A stretch of 64,000 nt of DNA from Candidatus Daviesbacteria bacterium (GTDB taxonomy: Bacteria; Patescibacteriota; Microgenomatia; Daviesbacterales; UBA10151): the NCBI GenBank assembly GCA_028715175.1, contig JAQUSJ010000002.1, forward strand, positions 92,117 to 156,116, given 5' to 3'. Position numbers and translations under genes: made by a program. The notes beneath the pieces were generated by a model, which ran no database searches, had not been told where the DNA came from, and saw nothing but the letters and a program-made list of their open reading frames with translations. Within the stretch, counting starts at the first letter, position 1, and each line of letters starts with the position of its first letter. This document shows positions 56,499-64,000 of the stretch, in pieces.

Positions 56499-56573
56499 CT
56501 GTCAGTCTTCAGCTACCAGCTTTCAGACCAGTAACAAAAAGTCTGACGACTGACGACTGAAAGCTGACGACTA
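56499..56573. repeat. Family-A element between the convergent PA14-protein and uppS genes; overlaps the uppS stop
   Basis: tgtcagtcttcagctaccagctttcagac-cagtaacaaaaa-gtctgacgactgacgactgaaagctgacgactatttc. Confidence 0.8.
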
Positions 56574-57287
56574 TTTCCCGAAGTTGCGCTTCTGCTCCTG
56601 ATACCAGACAATAGCTTTCTTTAACTCCCCAGCATCAAAATCCGGCCATAATGTTTTGGTAAAGTAGAATTCAGAATAGGCTGTCTGCCAAAGCAGGAAG
56701 TTTGACAGCCTTGATCTTCCTCCTGTCCGAATAACAAGCTCGGGATCAAGTTGGCCATTGGTATAAAGATGCCTCTCAATAATCTGCTCGTTTATTTTAT
56801 TAACATCAACACCCTCTTTAACAATATCTTTAATTGCTTCAACCAGCTCTTTTTTGCTACCATAATTTAAAGCTATATTTAATTTTATTGATTCACTTTT
56901 AATATATGTATCCTTGACCTGATCGATCAGTTTTTTAATGGTTTCCGGAAGACCTTGTACTTCCCCTAAAATAGTTACTCTAACCCCTTTTTGCATCATT
57001 TTCTTAAGTCTTGTATGGAAACCTTTTCTCATCAGATTAAACAGTTCAAAAACTTCCCTTTTGGCCCGCTCTTGAATATTTTCTGTGGAAAGAGCATAAA
57101 CTGTGACTGTTTTGATACCCATTTTATCCGCAGCTTCTACTACGTTTTCCAAAGCTTCTGTTCCTTTTTCATGCCCTTTAATATCAGGCAAATTCCTGAC
57201 TCTGGCCCATCTTCTGTTGCCATCCATTATTATGGCTATATGCTGAGGTATATTTTGTTGGTTTAGTTTTTTTATAGTTTTGTCCAT
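56571..57287 (-). CDS. uppS: Undecaprenyl-diphosphate synthase (cis-prenyltransferase)
   Basis: HIAIIMDGNRRWAR; VTVYALSTENIQER; RTGGRSRLSNFLLWQTAYSEFYF. Confidence 0.85.
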   Translation of the reverse strand: MDKTIKKLNQQNIPQHIAIIMDGNRRWARVRNLPDIKGHEKGTEALENVVEAADKMGIKTVTVYALSTENIQERAKREVFELFNLMRKGFHTRLKKMMQKGVRVTILGEVQGLPETIKKLIDQVKDTYIKSESIKLNIALNYGSKKELVEAIKDIVKEGVDVNKINEQIIERHLYTNGQLDPELVIRTGGRSRLSNFLLWQTAYSEFYFTKTLWPDFDAGELKKAIVWYQEQKRNFGK

Positions 57288-57368
57288 ATACTTTAAATTA
57301 AGTCTTAGTTTTCAATTCTCAGTTCTCAATTTTCAGTAAGTTTTCATTGATCAATGATTCATTGAAAA

Positions 57369-58301
57369 TTATTTAGTCCTCTGGACTAAATATGCTGCCA
57401 TCTGTTGCAATAATTTACTCATTTTCTTATCTTTAGCGCGATTAGAGCCCCCTGTTATCCTTGGCAATACTTTCATTGCTCTATTTTCATATTTTTTTGC
57501 TTCATTTTTAGCCGAATCTAATCCTCCTGTCCAGGCAACTTCATTATCCAAAATATCATCCTTAATTTGGAAAGCAACTCCCAGATTCTCTCCGAATTTT
57601 GCCAAATTTTTAAACAATTGTCCACCTCGGAGGTGGGCTCTGACTCCTCCGAGGTGTGATTTTGCTCCACCCAGAATTGCTCCTAAAATCAGCGGTCCTG
57701 ACACAGAATATTTGGCAGTCTTATATAGAGCAACCTTAAAATAATCCCCTTTATCTATAATTCGACTCGCCAATCGGCGGGGAGAATCACAATCCACATC
57801 TATATCCAGAATCTGCCCCATGACAGTTTGAAGCGCAGTATTTGAGAAATATTTTAAAGCTTCATTCTTTTCCTTTTCTGGAAAGTTAGCTTCAGAAATT
57901 ATTTTTATAGCCAGGAAAAAACCTGCATCAGCCAGGCTTATAGCCAAAGAAGTGCCACGGTGATCCCCGCCCAAAGCCTGATATAGCGAAGGTTGACCGC
58001 GCCTGATTAAATCTTTGTCAATAATGTCATCATGAGCCAACAGAGCAGTATGGAATATTTCATAAGCCGCAGCTACTTTTAGTATTTCACCTCCGGGGTG
58101 AGCTTTGTTCCATCGGACGTTTTCTCCTCGGAGGTGTGCTGCTAACTGAAAGCCCAATACCACTAACTTCCCCCTAATCCTCTTCCCTCCCTGATTTGCT
58201 TTAATAAATTTATCAACTGGTGGTAAAAGAGCGCGATCTATCCTGCCTGCCTCTTTTCGGAAATCATCAAGCAATTTATTCAGTTCTGCTTCCAAATCCA
58301 T
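57369..58301 (-). CDS. trans-Polyprenyl diphosphate synthase (FPP/GGPP synthase family)
   Basis: FARM LLAHDDIIDKD; SARM GVAFQIKDDILD. Contains in-frame family-D hairpin peptides SHLGGVRAHLRGG. Confidence 0.85.
   Translation of the reverse strand: MDLEAELNKLLDDFRKEAGRIDRALLPPVDKFIKANQGGKRIRGKLVVLGFQLAAHLRGENVRWNKAHPGGEILKVAAAYEIFHTALLAHDDIIDKDLIRRGQPSLYQALGGDHRGTSLAISLADAGFFLAIKIISEANFPEKEKNEALKYFSNTALQTVMGQILDIDVDCDSPRRLASRIIDKGDYFKVALYKTAKYSVSGPLILGAILGGAKSHLGGVRAHLRGGQLFKNLAKFGENLGVAFQIKDDILDNEVAWTGGLDSAKNEAKKYENRAMKVLPRITGGSNRAKDKKMSKLLQQMAAYLVQRTK
57623..57656. repeat. Family-D hairpin in frame in the polyprenyl synthase gene (minus-strand reading: HLGGVRAHLRGG)
   Basis: cacctcggaggtgggctctgactcctccgaggtg. 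Confidence 0.75.
58088..58136. repeat. Family-D-related split hairpin in the polyprenyl synthase gene
   Basis: cacctccggggtgagctttg...ctcctcggaggtg. Confidence 0.45.
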
Positions 58302-58360
58302 GTGTCATAATTTACCACATCAGCAGCTTGCATGCACTGTTTGTGGTAAAATTGGCTTTT

Positions 58361-61770: not shown

Positions 61771-61854
61771 TAATTTACAATTTACAATTAAAATTTATGA
61801 AACTTCATTTTACATTTTACATTATACATTTTACATTGGAGGCGAAGCCGACCT

Positions 61855-62154
61855 ATGTCTAGTCCTGTGACTGTTTGGAGAAACCATAAAAATTTGAGGA
61901 ATTACCTTGGAAAAACAGGTAAAGTCCTTGTCTGGACAAAGATATACATAGCACCGGAAGGCTTTGAACATGAGGCCCCTTATTTTGTGGCCATTGTCAA
62001 ACTGGAAGACGGAAGGAAAATGCCTTTGCAGATGGTTGAATGCGAGGAAAAAGATTTAATACCGAACCGGAAAGTAACACTTGTGGTTAGAAAACTGGGC
62101 AAAGTCGGACTTGATAAAGTAATTGAATACGGGGTAAAAGCGAAACCCTTATGA
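61855..62154 (+). CDS. DUF35 OB-fold protein (thiolase/HMGS scaffold-type), short form without Zn ribbon
   Basis: GKTGKVLVWTKIYIAPEGFEHEAPYFVAIVKLEDGRKMPLQMVEC matches the DUF35 OB-fold consensus; a GGAGG ribosome-binding site lies 8 nt upstream. Confidence 0.65.
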   Translation: MSSPVTVWRNHKNLRNYLGKTGKVLVWTKIYIAPEGFEHEAPYFVAIVKLEDGRKMPLQMVECEEKDLIPNRKVTLVVRKLGKVGLDKVIEYGVKAKPL

Positions 62155-63098
62155 TCAAAATTTCAGCTCCCGGCAAAATTCACCTGCTCGGCGAACATAT
62201 GGTAGTTTATGGCAAACCGGCTTTGCTGACCACAGTCAATCTCAGAGTAACTGTTGCTCTTCAACCATGTCATTCTGGTAAGCAAGTCTCCGAGCGCAAC
62301 CAGAATCTTGATTCTGGAGTCGTCGCTTCGCTCCTCCCCAGAATGACAAAAACCATAGAACCTATTGTTAAAAAATATCTTCAACTTAAAACCATCCCGC
62401 CTTACCAGTTAACTATTTCATCCCAAATTCCTATTGGAGCTGGTCTGGGTTCTTCAGCTGCTGTTTCAGCTGCCTATATTGCAGCCTTGCTCTCTTTTTT
62501 GAAAGTAAAATGGGATCTAAATCTTATTAATAAACTGACCTTTGAGGCAGAAAAAGTCTTTCATGATAATCCTTCCGGCGGGGATAATTCCACAGTAGTT
62601 TTTGGCGGACTGATTTGGTACCAAAAAGGTAAAGGGGTTCAACCCCTAAAATTTCCCATCTCCCCTCGCCTCACTCGAAACTTCATGTTGATTAGTACCG
62701 GAAAACCTAAGGAAACTACTAAACAAATGGTGGAAATGGTAGCTGCAAAAAGTAAAAAGTTCAAAAAGATATTTGATAATCAGGAAAAACTGGTCAGAGA
62801 ATTATTGTCGACCATACAAAATGCTAATGAGAATCAGCTAATTCAAATCATCAGGGCTGGAGAGAGAAATCTGGAAACTATTGGAGTTGTATCCCCATAT
62901 GCAACATCCATCATCAGAAAAATAGAAAATGCCGGCGGAGCTGCCAAAATCTGCGGAGGCGGCGGTAAAACTAAAGCCACCGGCATTTTACTTTGCTACC
63001 ACCCAAATCCTGCTGTTGTTAAAAACATTGCCAAATCATATAAACTTGATTACATTAAGACAACCTTAGGAGCCCAGGGTCTTAGAAATGAAACTTAA
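62151..63098 (+). CDS. Mevalonate kinase (GHMP kinase)
   Basis: SAPGKIHLLGEHMVVYG; PIGAGLGSSAAVSAA; ATGA overlap with the DUF35 gene. Confidence 0.8.
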   Translation: MIKISAPGKIHLLGEHMVVYGKPALLTTVNLRVTVALQPCHSGKQVSERNQNLDSGVVASLLPRMTKTIEPIVKKYLQLKTIPPYQLTISSQIPIGAGLGSSAAVSAAYIAALLSFLKVKWDLNLINKLTFEAEKVFHDNPSGGDNSTVVFGGLIWYQKGKGVQPLKFPISPRLTRNFMLISTGKPKETTKQMVEMVAAKSKKFKKIFDNQEKLVRELLSTIQNANENQLIQIIRAGERNLETIGVVSPYATSIIRKIENAGGAAKICGGGGKTKATGILLCYHPNPAVVKNIAKSYKLDYIKTTLGAQGLRNET

Positions 63099-64000
63099 TA
63101 AACAAAAACAAGACGGAACTGGACTTTTCGTGAGAAAAAACTACATAACAGAAAAAGGTTATCCGGAAAAGTCCAAAAAAATTACTGTTTCAGCGCCGGG
63201 AAAATTAATGCTTTTTGGAGAACATGCTGTAGTTTACGGCCGGCCTTGTATTGTGACTGCTGTTAATCAGAGAATGAAAGCCGCTGTGGAGCTGACAAAT
63301 GAACCAAGCTTCCAGCTTAATGCTCCTGATGTAGGAATTTCAAACTATAAAAAACCCATGGATCAACTAGGAATCGGTGATCCCTCGACTCCGCTCGGGA
63401 CAAGTATTCCCAAAGGAGCCAAATTTGTAGAGCTGGCTGTCAAAAACTTTACCCACGCAAGGCGTCCCCTTGCGAAGCTAAAAGGCATCAAAGTTACTAC
63501 TACATCAGAATTTTCCTCTCAGTTTGGATTTGGCTCCTCTTCTGCTTCAACTGTCTGTATAATTAAAGCTTTATCAGAACTAACCGGAGCCAGTCTTGAT
63601 AACAAGACTATTTTTGATCTTTCATACAAAACAGTTTTAGATATTCAAGGAAAGGGTTCCGGGTTTGATGTGGCAGCAGCAGTTTATGGTGGCACGCTGT
63701 ACTTTGTCACAGGTGGTAAAATTATCAAACCCCTTAAAATTGATGATCTACCAGTATTAGTGGGATATAGTGGTATTAAGTTTGATACAGTTAGACTTAT
63801 TGATGAAGTAGCAGAGAAGATGAAAAAATACCCTTCTGTCGTAAACAATATTTACGACCAAATCGCTAAATTAGTTGAAAAAGCAAAAAAAGCTATCTTA
63901 ACAAGTGATTTTATAACCTTAGGAGAACTAATGAATTTTAATGAAGGTTATCTATCAACCCTTGGCGTCGAAAGTAAAAAGTTATCTGATATGATATACG
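63087..64000 (+). CDS. Second GHMP-family kinase (phosphomevalonate-kinase- or mevalonate-kinase-like), 3' partial; not in the ORF track because no stop falls inside the window
   Basis: ATG at 63087 gives MKLNKQKQ...SAPGKLMLFGEHAVVYGRPCIVTAV...GFGSSSASTVCIIKAL, open to the window end. Confidence 0.6.

Follow-up and report, generated by a model that had tools for sequence, protein, structure and literature searches.

The closest described systems are found in the Microgenomates. Hoshino and Gaucher (2018; PMC6107057) reported the gene set discussed here, syntenic with a cis-prenyltransferase (cis-IPPS), in the majority of these genomes. In their phylogenies the CPR enzymes form a clade of their own that lies apart from archaea and agrees with the CPR species tree, and the enzymes were inferred to have been present in the CPR ancestor, with descent within CPR. 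The nearest structural reference is the thiolase/HMGCS complex of Methanothermococcus thermolithotrophicus (PDB ID: 6ESQ), whose chains I, A, and E are the best matches of the HMG-CoA synthase (HMGS), thiolase, and DUF35 protein of the locus. All structurally characterised DUF35 proteins have a zinc ribbon (PMC6996347).

We analysed 64,000 nucleotides of a Candidatus Daviesbacteria contig (Microgenomates, CPR), called the window here. With good confidence, positions 56571-64000 are an intact, native mevalonate-to-undecaprenyl-diphosphate gene cluster. The cluster is largely ordinary, because its arrangement has been known in this group of bacteria since 2018. Its genes are identifiable, retain their catalytic motifs, order, and overlaps, are conserved in relatives, and have a native composition.

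Results and Discussion

The minus strand carries uppS and a trans-prenyl synthase gene. The genes that diverge from these, on the plus strand, encode a class-I HMG-CoA reductase (HMGR), an archaeal-type HMGS, an archaeal-type thiolase, a DUF35 OB-fold protein, and two GHMP kinases (K1 and K2). Each gene that an earlier note on this DNA had named was found at its position. The ATGA stop/start overlaps that it had pointed out can be read in the sequence, at HMGS/thiolase and at DUF35/K1, and the reading frames of K1 and K2 share 11 nt. The thiolase and DUF35 genes are separated by 84 bp (61771..61854, plus strand). This spacer holds tandem heptamers of the TTTTACA type, and its GGAGG lies 12 nt ahead of the DUF35 ATG. 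We infer an operon structure for the cluster. The divergent prenyl synthase and HMGR genes are 59 bp apart (58302..58360). Because a scan for consensus promoters found sites to be no commoner than in shuffled sequence, the role of this spacer as a promoter region in both directions is presumed.

The uppS gene (56571..57287, minus strand) encodes a cis-prenyltransferase (undecaprenyl-diphosphate synthase) of 238 aa that matches PF01255 (258.5 bits) and TIGR00055 (247 bits; cut-off 109.55) and has the motifs DGNRRWA and RTGG. Orthologues 75-95% identical occupy the same position in the related loci L002-L006 and L008. The trans-polyprenyl diphosphate synthase (57369..58301, minus strand; 310 aa; PF00348, 129 bits) has DDIID at residues 91-95 and DDILD at 248-252. 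Its chain length is not assignable, since every specific NCBIfam model scored far under its cut-off, and a PDB search gave no match at E ≤ 1e-15. Compared with the L005 orthologue, it contains three or four lineage-specific insertions.

Two small palindromic elements lie in-frame in the prenyl synthase gene. The first is GC-rich (57623..57656, minus strand; SHLGGVRAHLRGG; repeat family D2; RNA fold −22.4 kcal/mol, z −4.2) and has no counterpart in the orthologues of L002 and L005. The second (58088..58136, minus strand; AHLRGENVRWNKAHPGGE; −19.5 kcal/mol, z −3.3) is present in L002 and absent from L005. A GC-rich element of the same architecture is in-frame in the HMGR gene (58556..58589, plus strand), where it encodes HLEGVKAHLRGV. 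Aligned with 6HR7, these residues are inserted in a loop, compared with archaeal HMGR. These in-frame repeats may be a novelty. A heptamer-based palindromic repeat is also dispersed in the window, with 24 matches against 0.09 expected. One copy (59524..59585, plus strand; inverted repeat I2), located between the stop of HMGR and the start of HMGS, folds into a strong hairpin (−31.5 kcal/mol, z −7.2) and includes the final HMGR codons. Another (56504..56572; repeat D1, inverted repeat I3; −23.5 kcal/mol, z −3.4) lies between the upstream gene for a PA14 protein, at its end, and the 3' end of uppS.

HMGR (58361..59551, plus strand; 396 aa) begins at ATG 58361; the mechanical open reading frame had GTG 58220. 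It matches PF00368 (392.7 bits), and its class is given by TIGR00533 (class I, 425 bits) versus TIGR00532 (class II, 55 bits). The best PDB match is 6HR7 (337.7 bits), with human 1DQ8 at 237.8 bits. The motifs ENLVG, DAMGMN, DKKPA, GQDLAH, GTVGGGT, and LAKAH are present.

HMGS (59597..60640, plus strand; 347 aa), with the N-terminus MTGIVSYGVYIPKYRIK, is above the cut-off of NF003274 (480 bits). It scores 425 bits with the archaeal model TIGR00748 (cut-off 353) versus 131 bits with the bacterial TIGR01835 (cut-off 360), and 350.7 bits with 6ESQ_I versus 88.5 bits with S. aureus mvaS. Using published motif definitions (E-C-H-N for HMGS; CxS, HDxF, and GH for thiolase; PMC12960953), we found that HMGS keeps Glu80 (GSESHP), Cys112 (EFACKAG), His234 (VFHMPNG), and Asn266 (IGNPYS). 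The ATG of the archaeal-type (SCP2-like) acetoacetyl-CoA thiolase (60637..61770, plus strand; 377 aa) overlaps the HMGS stop. This protein scores 479 bits with NF004720 (cut-off 420) and 300.8 bits with 6ESQ_A, and it keeps CAS (Cys83), VHDCF (HDxF, residues 276-279), and GHP (325-327). The description of the enzyme set as archaeal-type is well founded, as HMGS, thiolase, DUF35, and HMGR are each best matched by solved structures of one archaeal enzyme set and the catalytic motifs are intact.

Both kinases belong to the mevalonate kinase (MVK) family (TIGR00549). K1 (62151..63098, plus strand; 315 aa), whose ATG overlaps the DUF35 stop, scores 183 bits with TIGR00549 (cut-off 163), has human, rat, and S. 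aureus MVK as its best PDB matches, and carries the canonical motifs PGKIHLLGEH, GAGLGSSAA, and NPSGGD. K2 (63088..64000, plus strand) is cut by the window end and has a full length of 353 aa in L002; it starts at ATG 63088 or possibly further downstream. This MVK-family paralogue is 27-29% identical to K1, has the atypical motifs SQFGFGSSSA and GSGFD, and scores 163.7 bits with TIGR00549, 182 bits with PRK03926, and 85.8 bits with TIGR01220. For its full-length L002 orthologue the best PDB matches are the MVK chains 4HAC/6MDE (148 bits), which we take to be of archaeal origin. Neither kinase passed the phosphomevalonate kinase (PMK) model TIGR01220 (cut-off 165.7; K1 57 bits, K2 86 bits). K1 is the putative MVK and K2 a candidate PMK.

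The 3' end of K2 and the decarboxylase gene lie outside the window. The earlier note had presumed a decarboxylase and an IPP isomerase just past it. The decarboxylase (TIGR01240, 263 bits) is borne out, as it is the next gene after K2 in each of the six related loci that extend far enough; the isomerase is not, as sufB/sufC come after the decarboxylase in L002. P0278, which is 87% identical to the L002 decarboxylase, is probably the window genome's own copy; its contig has the same length (164,722 bp) as that bearing the window's DUF35. A NUDIX, IDI-like gene occurs within the cluster in more distant relatives only. We looked for an IPP isomerase and an isopentenyl phosphate kinase (IPK) in the window and found neither.

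We consider the classical order reasonably probable, in which K2 would add the second phosphate and the decarboxylase, acting on its predicted substrate, would then give IPP. Three GHMP-superfamily genes stay together, and two conserved MVK-family kinases beside a decarboxylase are read most simply as MVK and PMK. In an alternative order of the Chloroflexi/haloarchaeal type, one MVK paralogue would form mevalonate 5-phosphate, a phosphomevalonate decarboxylase (PMD) would convert it to isopentenyl phosphate, and the second paralogue or an unlinked kinase would give IPP. We regard this order as possible, though doubtful. The L002 decarboxylase scores 303 bits with the Anaerolinea thermophila PMD 6N0X (PMC9254496) versus at most 206 bits with true mevalonate diphosphate decarboxylases (MDDs). 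At the diagnostic positions (Dellas et al., PMC3857490, Table 4), its homologues have a PMD-like Arg27 (120 of 120), Thr or Ser at 192, never Arg at 193, and His, Gln, or Met at 196, and in this lineage Asn replaces the catalytic Asp. The failure of both kinases to pass the PMK model also favors the alternative order, as do the IPK homologues of Microgenomates (PMC6107057). However, position 21 is Lys or Arg in all 120 homologues, as in MDDs, whereas Asn or Leu occurs there in PMDs; the substitutions engineered in 6N0Z are exactly N21K and H196M. Neither the window nor the related loci yielded an AA_kinase/IPK gene. To our knowledge there is no GHMP-family IPK, which also counts against the alternative order. 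A decarboxylase nearest to PMD with Asn for the catalytic Asp may be a novelty.

The DUF35 gene (61855..62154, plus strand) encodes 99 aa. Its product matches PF01796 (40.3 bits; cut-off 27.1), and residues 18-98 align to residues 48-127 of the archaeal chain 6ESQ_E (38.6 bits). The AF2 model (pLDDT 86) has a helix at residues 4-17 and a five-stranded barrel. In a Foldseek search of the PDB the top matches, led by 6ESQ_F and 6ESQ_E, were all DUF35 subunits of thiolase complexes. The family membership and OB fold claimed earlier therefore stand. The canonical form does not, since there are no Cys pairs, the zinc ribbon is absent, and the OB-fold half of the family is alone. In 6ET9 the ribbon contributes to the thiolase-contacting cleft, and its absence here counts against a scaffold. 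Because the ribbon is missing, the scaffold role is assigned by homology; we presume that the protein is a minimal scaffold of the thiolase/HMGS complex, and a complex would form with this truncated version. A decaying remnant without a role, with thiolase and HMGS acting scaffold-free, seems unlikely. It would fit the loss of one of two family domains and the lack of a match to any NCBIfam model, but length and sequence are conserved (99-aa orthologues 67-96% identical in L002-L008; 22 invariant columns across 27 diverse homologues). The ribbon is absent in 121 of 124 clusters of short homologues (50% identity); at least 121 clusters have this short form. The position after thiolase, the gene's own GGAGG, and the overlap with K1 are all kept, and the structure model is confident. 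A DUF35 scaffold lacking the zinc ribbon may be a novelty.

The host is a CPR bacterium, in line with the reduced genome proposed for it. The window HMGS shares 96% identity with its counterpart in a Ca. Daviesbacteria MAG, and LAGLIDADG ORFs split the rRNA genes. The order uppS, prenyl synthase // HMGR, HMGS, thiolase, DUF35, K1, K2, decarboxylase is kept in seven related loci (L002-L008, of which L002 is the closest) and partly in L010 and L013. Among Daviesbacteria-like genomes the entire layout is conserved down to 72% HMGS identity. The lateral gain that the earlier note suggested, here read as a fairly recent one from an archaeon, is very unlikely. In comparisons with curated models and solved structures, the nearest counterparts of HMGS, thiolase, DUF35, and HMGR are in each case archaeal, but identity to the archaeal proteins, judged from the HMGS, thiolase, and DUF35 alignments, is only moderate, which is unlike a recent transfer. 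Composition is that of the rest of the window (GC 0.41 in the cluster vs 0.44; GC3 0.35 vs 0.36; similar codon usage), gene order extends to more distant CPR contigs, and the layout of kinases, decarboxylase, and uppS linkage is not archaeal. The CPR clades of PMC6107057, apart from archaea, also argue against it. Neither a placement in Gram-positive mevalonate clades nor a DUF35 failure in profile searches was found. A transfer far back in time, into the ancestor of the CPR, is conceivable with these data.

That the HMGS-like, thiolase-like, and DUF35 trio has been repurposed as a C-acyltransferase like PhlABC or MucABC is hardly credible: PhlA and PhlC are next-best or mid-ranking PDB matches (189.6 and 111.2 bits) and PhlB-type DUF35 subunits are among the structural matches, but the archaeal mevalonate complex scores much higher, the trio lies between HMGR and the mevalonate kinases, and the HMGS E-C-H-N and thiolase HDxF residues lost in acyltransferases (PMC12960953) are all kept.

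Conclusion

We propose that the thiolase would condense two acetyl-CoA to acetoacetyl-CoA, a reaction unfavorable alone, which the translationally coupled HMGS would pull forward. The small DUF35 protein may hold the two together as in the archaeal thiolase/HMGCS complex, in a minimal form. HMGR would then produce mevalonate, K1 would phosphorylate it, K2, an old MVK paralogue, would most likely add the second phosphate, and the decarboxylase encoded just past the window would give IPP. The trans-prenyl synthase would make an allylic primer, which UppS would extend to C55, giving the lipid carrier on which the assembly of cell wall and glycans depends, the predicted end product. With this cluster, a tiny CPR bacterium would thus produce isoprenoid precursors and the lipid carrier for its cell wall by means of archaeal-looking enzymes.

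Gene Content and Layout of the Cluster

The mevalonate cluster lies at positions 56571–64000 of the window, and every gene listed in the earlier note was recovered there by ORF calls and by searches with Pfam and NCBIfam models. Two prenyl synthase genes are on the minus strand. The first is uppS (56571–57287), which scores 258.5 bits with PF01255 and 247 bits with TIGR00055 (cut-off 110). The second encodes a trans-polyprenyl synthase (57369–58301; PF00348, 129 bits) with the motifs DDIID and DDILD. As to chain length, this enzyme was far under the cut-off of all NCBIfam equivalog models, and a PDB search gave no match at E ≤ 1e-15. 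The plus strand carries the genes for HMG-CoA reductase (HMGR, class I, with its ATG at 58361), HMG-CoA synthase (HMGS, 59597–60640), a thiolase (60637–61770), a DUF35 OB-fold protein of 99 amino acids (61855–62154), and two GHMP kinases, K1 (62151–63098) and K2 (from 63088 and continuing past the window end). The start of HMGR was set by orthologue alignment and sequence; the mechanical ORF begins at GTG 58220 and overlaps the prenyl synthase gene.

A spacer of 59 bp separates the divergent prenyl synthase and HMGR genes. ATGA overlaps are present in the sequence, one between HMGS and thiolase and one between DUF35 and K1. The K2 gene begins 11 nt before the end of K1, and the gap of 84 bp between thiolase and DUF35 has GGAGG at its end. 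A scan of the cluster for promoters and terminators gave counts no different from those in shuffled sequence. The order uppS, prenyl synthase // HMGR, HMGS, thiolase, DUF35, K1, K2 is kept in seven related loci of other genomes. The HMGS, thiolase, and DUF35 genes are adjacent and co-oriented, and their order is the same in the related loci L002–L008, L010, and L012. The uppS and HMGR genes are on opposite strands, with uppS 1.07 kb upstream, and L002–L006 and L008 have uppS in the corresponding place.

Identity between the window and L002, the closest relative, is 95–96 % for uppS, HMGS, thiolase, and DUF35, 88 % for K1, 80 % for HMGR, 71 % for K2, and 59 % for the prenyl synthase. Such uneven divergence points to Daviesbacteria lineages having recombined with each other, or else to widely differing constraints. 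In some relatives the K1–K2 gap holds unrelated genes (L004, 13769–15896; L008, 13694–16486; L006, 12796–13841). Two of these three insertions carry a SAM methyltransferase and an unknown protein of 369–415 residues; the other carries a PIN-domain pair. The stretch directly upstream of the cluster (51772–56495) has three ORFs, two of which match no family. The third encodes 991 residues, is Cys- and Pro-rich, and has a signal-like N terminus and a PA14 domain (53.5 bits); it is probably a surface or adhesion protein.

Upper Pathway Enzymes

The label "archaeal-type", given to these enzymes in the earlier note, is borne out. HMGS, thiolase, and DUF35 have as their best PDB matches three chains of a single structure, 6ESQ, the thiolase/HMGCS/DUF35 complex of Methanothermococcus thermolithotrophicus. 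With the archaeal model TIGR00748, HMGS scores 425 bits and so exceeds the cut-off of 353; with the bacterial model TIGR01835 it reaches 131 bits, well short of 360. Against all PDB sequences it scores 350.7 bits with chain I of 6ESQ, 189.6 bits with PhlA, and 79–88 bits with the Gram-positive mvaS enzymes. The thiolase reaches 479 bits with NF004720 (cut-off 420) and 300.8 bits with chain A of 6ESQ. On NF053570, which is specific to M. thermolithotrophicus, it scores 441 bits, under the cut-off of 600. HMGR belongs to class I (TIGR00533, 425 bits, versus 55 bits for the class II model). Its closest PDB entry is 6HR7 (337.7 bits), which we take to be the HMGR of the same archaeon as 6ESQ; human HMGR gives 237.8 bits.

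HMGS enzymes are defined by an E-C-H-N tetrad, and archaeal thiolases by the motifs CxS, GH, and HDxF (PMC12960953). The tetrad is complete here, with Glu80, Cys112, His234, and Asn266 in conserved motifs. The thiolase has CAS at 83–85 (CxS), HDCF at 276–279 (HDxF), and GHP at 325–327 (GH). The same HMGS-like, thiolase-like, and DUF35 subunits make up the Friedel–Crafts C-acyltransferases PhlABC and MucABC, which are homologous to the trio at lower scores. These are repurposed enzymes without the HMGS tetrad or HDxF, and the zinc ribbon of their DUF35 subunit is kept (PMC12960953). The Daviesbacteria trio is the opposite: tetrad and HDxF are kept and the ribbon is lost. Because the tetrad and all three thiolase motifs are present, a PhlABC-like acyltransferase is rejected, and the trio is a mevalonate-pathway unit.

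The likeness to the archaeal complex covers the best solved-structure match of each of the three subunits, the catalytic residues and HDxF, and the adjacency of the genes. The archaeal complex is a heteromeric assembly in which a shared CoA-binding site channels acetoacetyl-CoA, and the Daviesbacteria trio may form an assembly of this kind.

A DUF35 Protein without the Zinc Ribbon

In the archaeal DUF35 chain of 130 residues, a short helix at the N terminus is followed by a rubredoxin-like zinc ribbon with four Cys and then by an OB fold. Unlike this chain, the window protein has 99 residues, and the short helix and the OB fold are what remains. Its match to chain E of 6ESQ (38.6 bits) aligns residues 18–98 to archaeal residues 48–127. 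Its N-terminal helix, with WR..K, has a weak counterpart in residues 4–22 of the archaeal chain, of which residues ∼23–47 are skipped. The protein has no CxxC and no Cys pair, so the N-terminal zinc ribbon is absent; by the alignment, its excision was a clean one. Every structurally characterized DUF35 protein binds zinc at equivalent positions, and in 6ET9 the thiolase is contacted by the cleft between the two domains of DUF35 (PMC6996347).

An AlphaFold2 model of the window protein (pLDDT 86) shows a helix at residues 4–17 followed by a five-strand barrel. A Foldseek search with this model gave 6ESQ_F as the top match (E=7e-7), and each of the first 16 PDB matches is the DUF35 subunit of a thiolase-type complex. 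The earlier assignment as a DUF35 OB-fold protein therefore stands for the barrel, given the score with PF01796, the family once named for the C-terminal domain of DUF35 (40.3 bits, cut-off 27.1), the model, and the matches to 6ESQ. It has to be qualified for the zinc ribbon, which is missing.

The short form is widespread. Orthologues in L002–L008 have 99–106 residues and are 63–96 % identical, and nearly all of 120 close homologues have 98–111 residues. An exhaustive profile search over 1.84 billion representatives gave 124 hits of at most 115 residues, and 121 of these are without CxxC; forms of 130–136 residues with two CxxC appear from E∼1e-18. Some homologues have short Gly/Ser-rich loop insertions. 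A pseudogene or decaying gene is rejected on account of the conserved length and sequence, the 121/124 short forms, the retained operon position, and the confident model. Diverse short representatives were placed by gene neighborhood. P0170, a distant short homologue, is encoded on a bacterial contig, where HMGS and thiolase precede it. P0167, a long ribbon-bearing homologue, is in an operon of thiolase, DUF35, K1-like, K2-like, decarboxylase, and NUDIX genes. Since this ribbon-bearing form occurs in an operon of the same order, the loss of the ribbon falls within the lineage to which this operon belongs.

Kinases

K1 and K2 are 27–29 % identical to each other. Both pass the mevalonate kinase (MVK) model TIGR00549 (cut-off 163) with 183 bits for K1 and 164/191 bits for K2, and both have the GEH motif and the Asp of SGxD. 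K1 carries the textbook MVK motifs IPIGAGLGSSAA and NPSGGD, and its best PDB matches are the human, rat, and S. aureus MVKs. The N-domain motifs of K2, SQFGFGSSSA and GSGFDVAAAVYGG, are unusual. Its C-terminal domain matches the MVK chains 4HAC and 6MDE (148 bits), which are presumably archaeal. Neither kinase passes the phosphomevalonate kinase (PMK) model TIGR01220 (cut-off 165.7), on which K2, at 85.8 bits, is somewhat higher than K1, at 56.8 bits. The Arch_PMK model gives 49 bits for K1 and 85 bits for K2 against a cut-off of 500, and TIGR01219 gives 28–44 bits against 377. PDB searches with the two kinases returned MVKs and one PMK-like chain, 3K17 (∼47 bits for both). As far as these profiles tell, PMK function could be supplied by an MVK paralogue.

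Decarboxylase

The decarboxylase was expected just beyond the window, and it indeed follows K2 in all six related loci that are long enough to show it. The L002 gene (12466–13455) scores 263 bits with TIGR01240 (cut-off 171) and 181 bits with NF040704 (cut-off 475). The decarboxylase is followed in L002 by sufB and sufC, both of opposite orientation, and in L005 by kbl and tdh. P0278, a decarboxylase encoded on a Daviesbacteria contig, is 87 % identical to that of L002, and a gene of this type very probably lies just downstream in the genome of the window.

The closest structure to the L002 decarboxylase is 6N0X (303 bits); the best true MDD gives 206 bits. 6N0X is the phosphomevalonate decarboxylase (PMD) of Anaerolinea thermophila bound to mevalonate 5-phosphate (PMC9254496). 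Diagnostic positions were taken from Dellas et al. (PMC3857490, Table 4; S. epidermidis numbering) and counted in 120 Daviesbacteria-type homologues (P0277–P0396), the gene itself being outside the window. The pocket was also read against wild-type 6N0X and the variant 6N0Z (N21K and H196M). Two positions are PMD-like: residue 27 is Arg in 120/120, and residue 192 is Thr in 89 and Ser in 31. Residue 193 is never Arg (0/120), which is not MDD-like, and residue 196 is mixed, being His, Gln, or Met. Residue 21 is Arg in 73 and Lys in 47, an MDD-like basic residue where PMD has Asn or Leu. The pocket is therefore of the PMD type in Arg27 and Thr192 and not PMD-like at position 21. The full MDD set (Lys21, Ser192, Arg193, and the catalytic Asp283) occurs in none of the 120 homologues, which have no Arg193 and no Asp283.

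At position 283 the catalytic Asp is replaced by Asn in 120/120 homologues, and 86 of them have an Asp four residues later (TINTGQD). This Asn is unusual, since no DMD, PMD, or MBD enzyme departs from the catalytic Asp (PMC9254496). In mutants of SsoDMD, D281N stays active, and D281T and D281V turn into kinases; PtoMBD D309N is inactive (PMC9254496). With one Asn mutant active and the other inactive, Asn alone is no predictor of lost function.

Order of the Lower Pathway

We favor the classical order as the probable one, in which K1 acts as MVK, K2 as PMK, and the diphosphate is then decarboxylated. It gives each of the three conserved genes a role and agrees with residue 21 being basic. The mevalonate operons known from Gram-positive cocci (mvaS, mvaA, mvaK1-mvaD-mvaK2) likewise have two kinases and a decarboxylase of the GHMP superfamily clustered with HMGS and HMGR. 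Unlike in those operons, the HMGS here is not of the mvaS type, HMGR is of class I and not II, and an SCP2/archaeal thiolase occurs with DUF35. The second kinase is also not a TIGR01220-type PMK, and the decarboxylase is without Arg193 and Asp283.

An alternative order, through isopentenyl phosphate, is possible but distinctly less probable. It would agree with the closeness of the decarboxylase to 6N0X, with Arg27 and Thr/Ser192, and with the lack of Arg193, but neither the window, which is a small part of the genome, nor the related loci showed a gene of the IPK family. AA_kinase, the family of IPK, had no match among the scanned window ORFs or the called genes of L010–L013. A scan of the window and loci for a K-x-GGS-type IPK motif, which is a weak test, found nothing. 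The Chloroflexi use such an alternative pathway (MPD and IPK of Roseiflexus castenholzii; AthPMD, 6N0X). The decarboxylase of this lineage is most similar to AthPMD, and Arg27, a residue other than Arg at 193, and often His196 are common to both. The Daviesbacteria set differs from the Chloroflexi route in its second MVK-family kinase, in Lys/Arg21 in place of Asn/Leu, in the catalytic Asp being Asn, and in that no IPK was seen.

More speculatively, and in our view unlikely, Daviesbacteria-type CPR bacteria would run an uncharacterized variant of the mevalonate pathway. Its thiolase and HMGS would sit on a minimal DUF35 scaffold without the ribbon, and two ancient MVK paralogues, with no recognizable PMK, would work with a PMD-like decarboxylase that has a natural Asn. 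One MVK paralogue may then have become a phosphomevalonate (or isopentenyl phosphate) kinase, or phosphorylation and decarboxylation may follow an order unlike that of the four known routes.

Isomerase and MEP Genes

An IPP isomerase had also been expected just beyond the window. This finds no support in the closest relative, L002, where sufB and sufC come after the decarboxylase. No type I IPP isomerase was found in the window, whose sole NUDIX ORF (41270–41698) is MutT-like, and no MEP-pathway gene was found in its 64 kb. NUDIX genes do occur near the decarboxylase in some relatives. One lies between K2 and the decarboxylase in L003 (8304–8780), L004 (16848–17339), and L008 (17632–18105), and another directly after the decarboxylase in L004 (18344–18865, minus strand) and L006 (16871–17392, minus strand). 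The best model for these genes is that of the type I IPP isomerase, with scores under the cut-offs (94 versus 127 bits; 88 versus 106 bits). Four decarboxylase homologues (P0284, P0300, P0306, and P0316) are fused to a NUDIX domain. Two of the NUDIX proteins have LAVAGHV and ISASGHV at what we take to be the position of the catalytic Cys of E. coli IDI. The decarboxylase-linked NUDIX proteins may not be canonical isomerases.

Host and Related Genomes

The rRNA genes of the window (33141–44798) are interrupted and unlinked, which are hallmarks of CPR bacteria. The 23S gene is ∼670 nt longer than the model and contains a LAGLIDADG ORF (35759–36289). The 16S gene is in three pieces, and another LAGLIDADG ORF (43040–43636) is within it. 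Between the two are genes for GAPDH, PGK, the MutT-like NUDIX protein, and tRNAs. Two ORFs are of the "23S rRNA-intervening sequence protein" kind (34421–34789 and 19211–19789). Positions 6010–19203 are taken up by one ORF of 4397 amino acids; giant proteins like this are common in CPR bacteria.

Eight loci came out of a scan in which each species was represented by one genome. The best is L002, from a Ca. Daviesbacteria MAG, with an HMGS 96 % identical, and the window DUF35 is identical to the NCBI protein P0001, likewise from a Ca. Daviesbacteria MAG. The other loci are from Daviesbacteria or "Patescibacteria group" MAGs, except for three titled "uncultured Gammaproteobacteria": L004, L006, and L007 (CAZKCV010000004, CAZCNP010000004, and CAYMUB010000020), with HMGS 72–84 % identical. 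Because these three carry the Daviesbacteria-type cluster, their labels are probably wrong.

Repeats in and around the Cluster

A GC-rich palindromic unit close to CACCTCSGAGGTG is paired into hairpins of 34–50 nt, with seven unit matches versus 0.36 expected. Elements of this type are in frame in the prenyl synthase gene (57623–57656 and 58088–58136), in HMGR (58556–58589), and in the 4397-residue ORF (17245–17277 and 18730–18762); one in L004 (12606–12639) is intergenic. They read ..HL(R/G/E)G..AHLRG.. in the prenyl synthase and HMGR, and SSGVG(F/L)DSPEV in the giant ORF. One copy is missing in the L002 and L005 orthologues and one in L005 only; the HMGR copy is shared and adds a loop that the archaeal structure 6HR7 does not have. 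As copies are present in some orthologues and not in others, the insertions are recent. These in-frame elements are reminiscent of the Rickettsia palindromic elements.

A second, heptamer-based palindromic repeat, GACTGAAAGCTGACGRCT and its variants, is dispersed over the window with 24 matches versus 0.09 expected (for example at 942/987, 3976/4012, 5487/5523, 23699/23737, 56504/56555, and 59531/59568). Most copies are inverted pairs directly after gene 3′ ends. The copy between HMGR and HMGS holds the last HMGR codons and folds into a hairpin of −31.5 kcal mol−1 (z −7.2). In its placement and folding, the repeat looks like a REP-like or terminator-like element. Two spacers consist of tandem 7-nt units, of the TTTTACA type between thiolase and DUF35 (61771–61854) and of the TTCTCAR type between uppS and the prenyl synthase (57288–57368). 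A periodicity of 7 nt seems to be general in the non-coding DNA of this genome.

Origin and Relation to Published Work

The lateral acquisition suggested in the earlier note is not supported by the composition of the cluster. Its GC content is 0.41 and its GC3 0.35, versus 0.44 and 0.36 in fifteen other genes of the window, and the codon-usage correlations of its genes fall in the same range as those of these fifteen. The layout is common to genomes with HMGS down to 72 % identity, and in part to more distant CPR contigs. Hoshino and Gaucher (2018; PMC6107057) found CPR mevalonate enzymes in clades of their own, with trees of the early-step enzymes congruent with the CPR species tree, and placed all these genes in the CPR ancestor. 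Native composition, conserved layout, and these CPR clades argue against a recent transfer; an ancient transfer of the mevalonate genes is still conceivable.

The same authors reported that the mevalonate genes typically cluster with the cis-prenyltransferase gene (PMC6107057). Their Microgenomates set, from the same taxon group, comprises archaeal-type AACT, HMGS, HMGR-I, MVK, a second GHMP kinase called PMVK, and a DPMD-family decarboxylase. The cluster has these components, the decarboxylase being seen in related loci and as P0278. IDI-I is reported as general in CPR (PMC6107057); here it is absent from the window and from the flank of the cluster in the closest relative. Because gene set and synteny were reported in 2018, the cluster as such is already in the literature; it is typical for Microgenomates and of low surprise to a specialist.

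PMC6107057 has no occurrence of DUF35, calls the decarboxylase DPMD, and contains no residue-level analysis in its accessible text. Our searches found no literature joining DUF35 with CPR mevalonate clusters, although such an absence is not proof of novelty. The searchable literature likewise gave no discussion of three details that are worth noting: a DUF35 without zinc, a PMD-like decarboxylase with Asn for Asp next to two MVK paralogues, and palindromes in frame within genes.

Biological Meaning

That the upper enzymes look archaeal and the lower ones bacterial has served as an argument in the debate over the ancestral isoprenoid pathway (PMC6107057). As that combination is already published, this locus is one more example of it. 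Its details bear on the enzymes themselves. By lacking zinc, the DUF35 protein offers a natural experiment on the requirements of the thiolase/HMGS scaffold. A decarboxylase that naturally has Asn for Asp is relevant to the mechanism of its enzyme family, and the second kinase to the origin of phosphomevalonate kinase.

From its gene content, the cluster would link acetyl-CoA to undecaprenyl diphosphate. A ligase/polymerase of the Wzy_C type and an M23/LysM peptidase are also encoded in the window, which is consistent with a wall-building cell that needs the C55 carrier. CPR genomes are very small and most biosynthesis is missing from them; because they are so minimal, the pathways retained show what these bacteria are unable to get from a host. 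A full route from acetyl-CoA to C55 would mean that they themselves make the carrier on which the assembly of cell wall and glycans depends.
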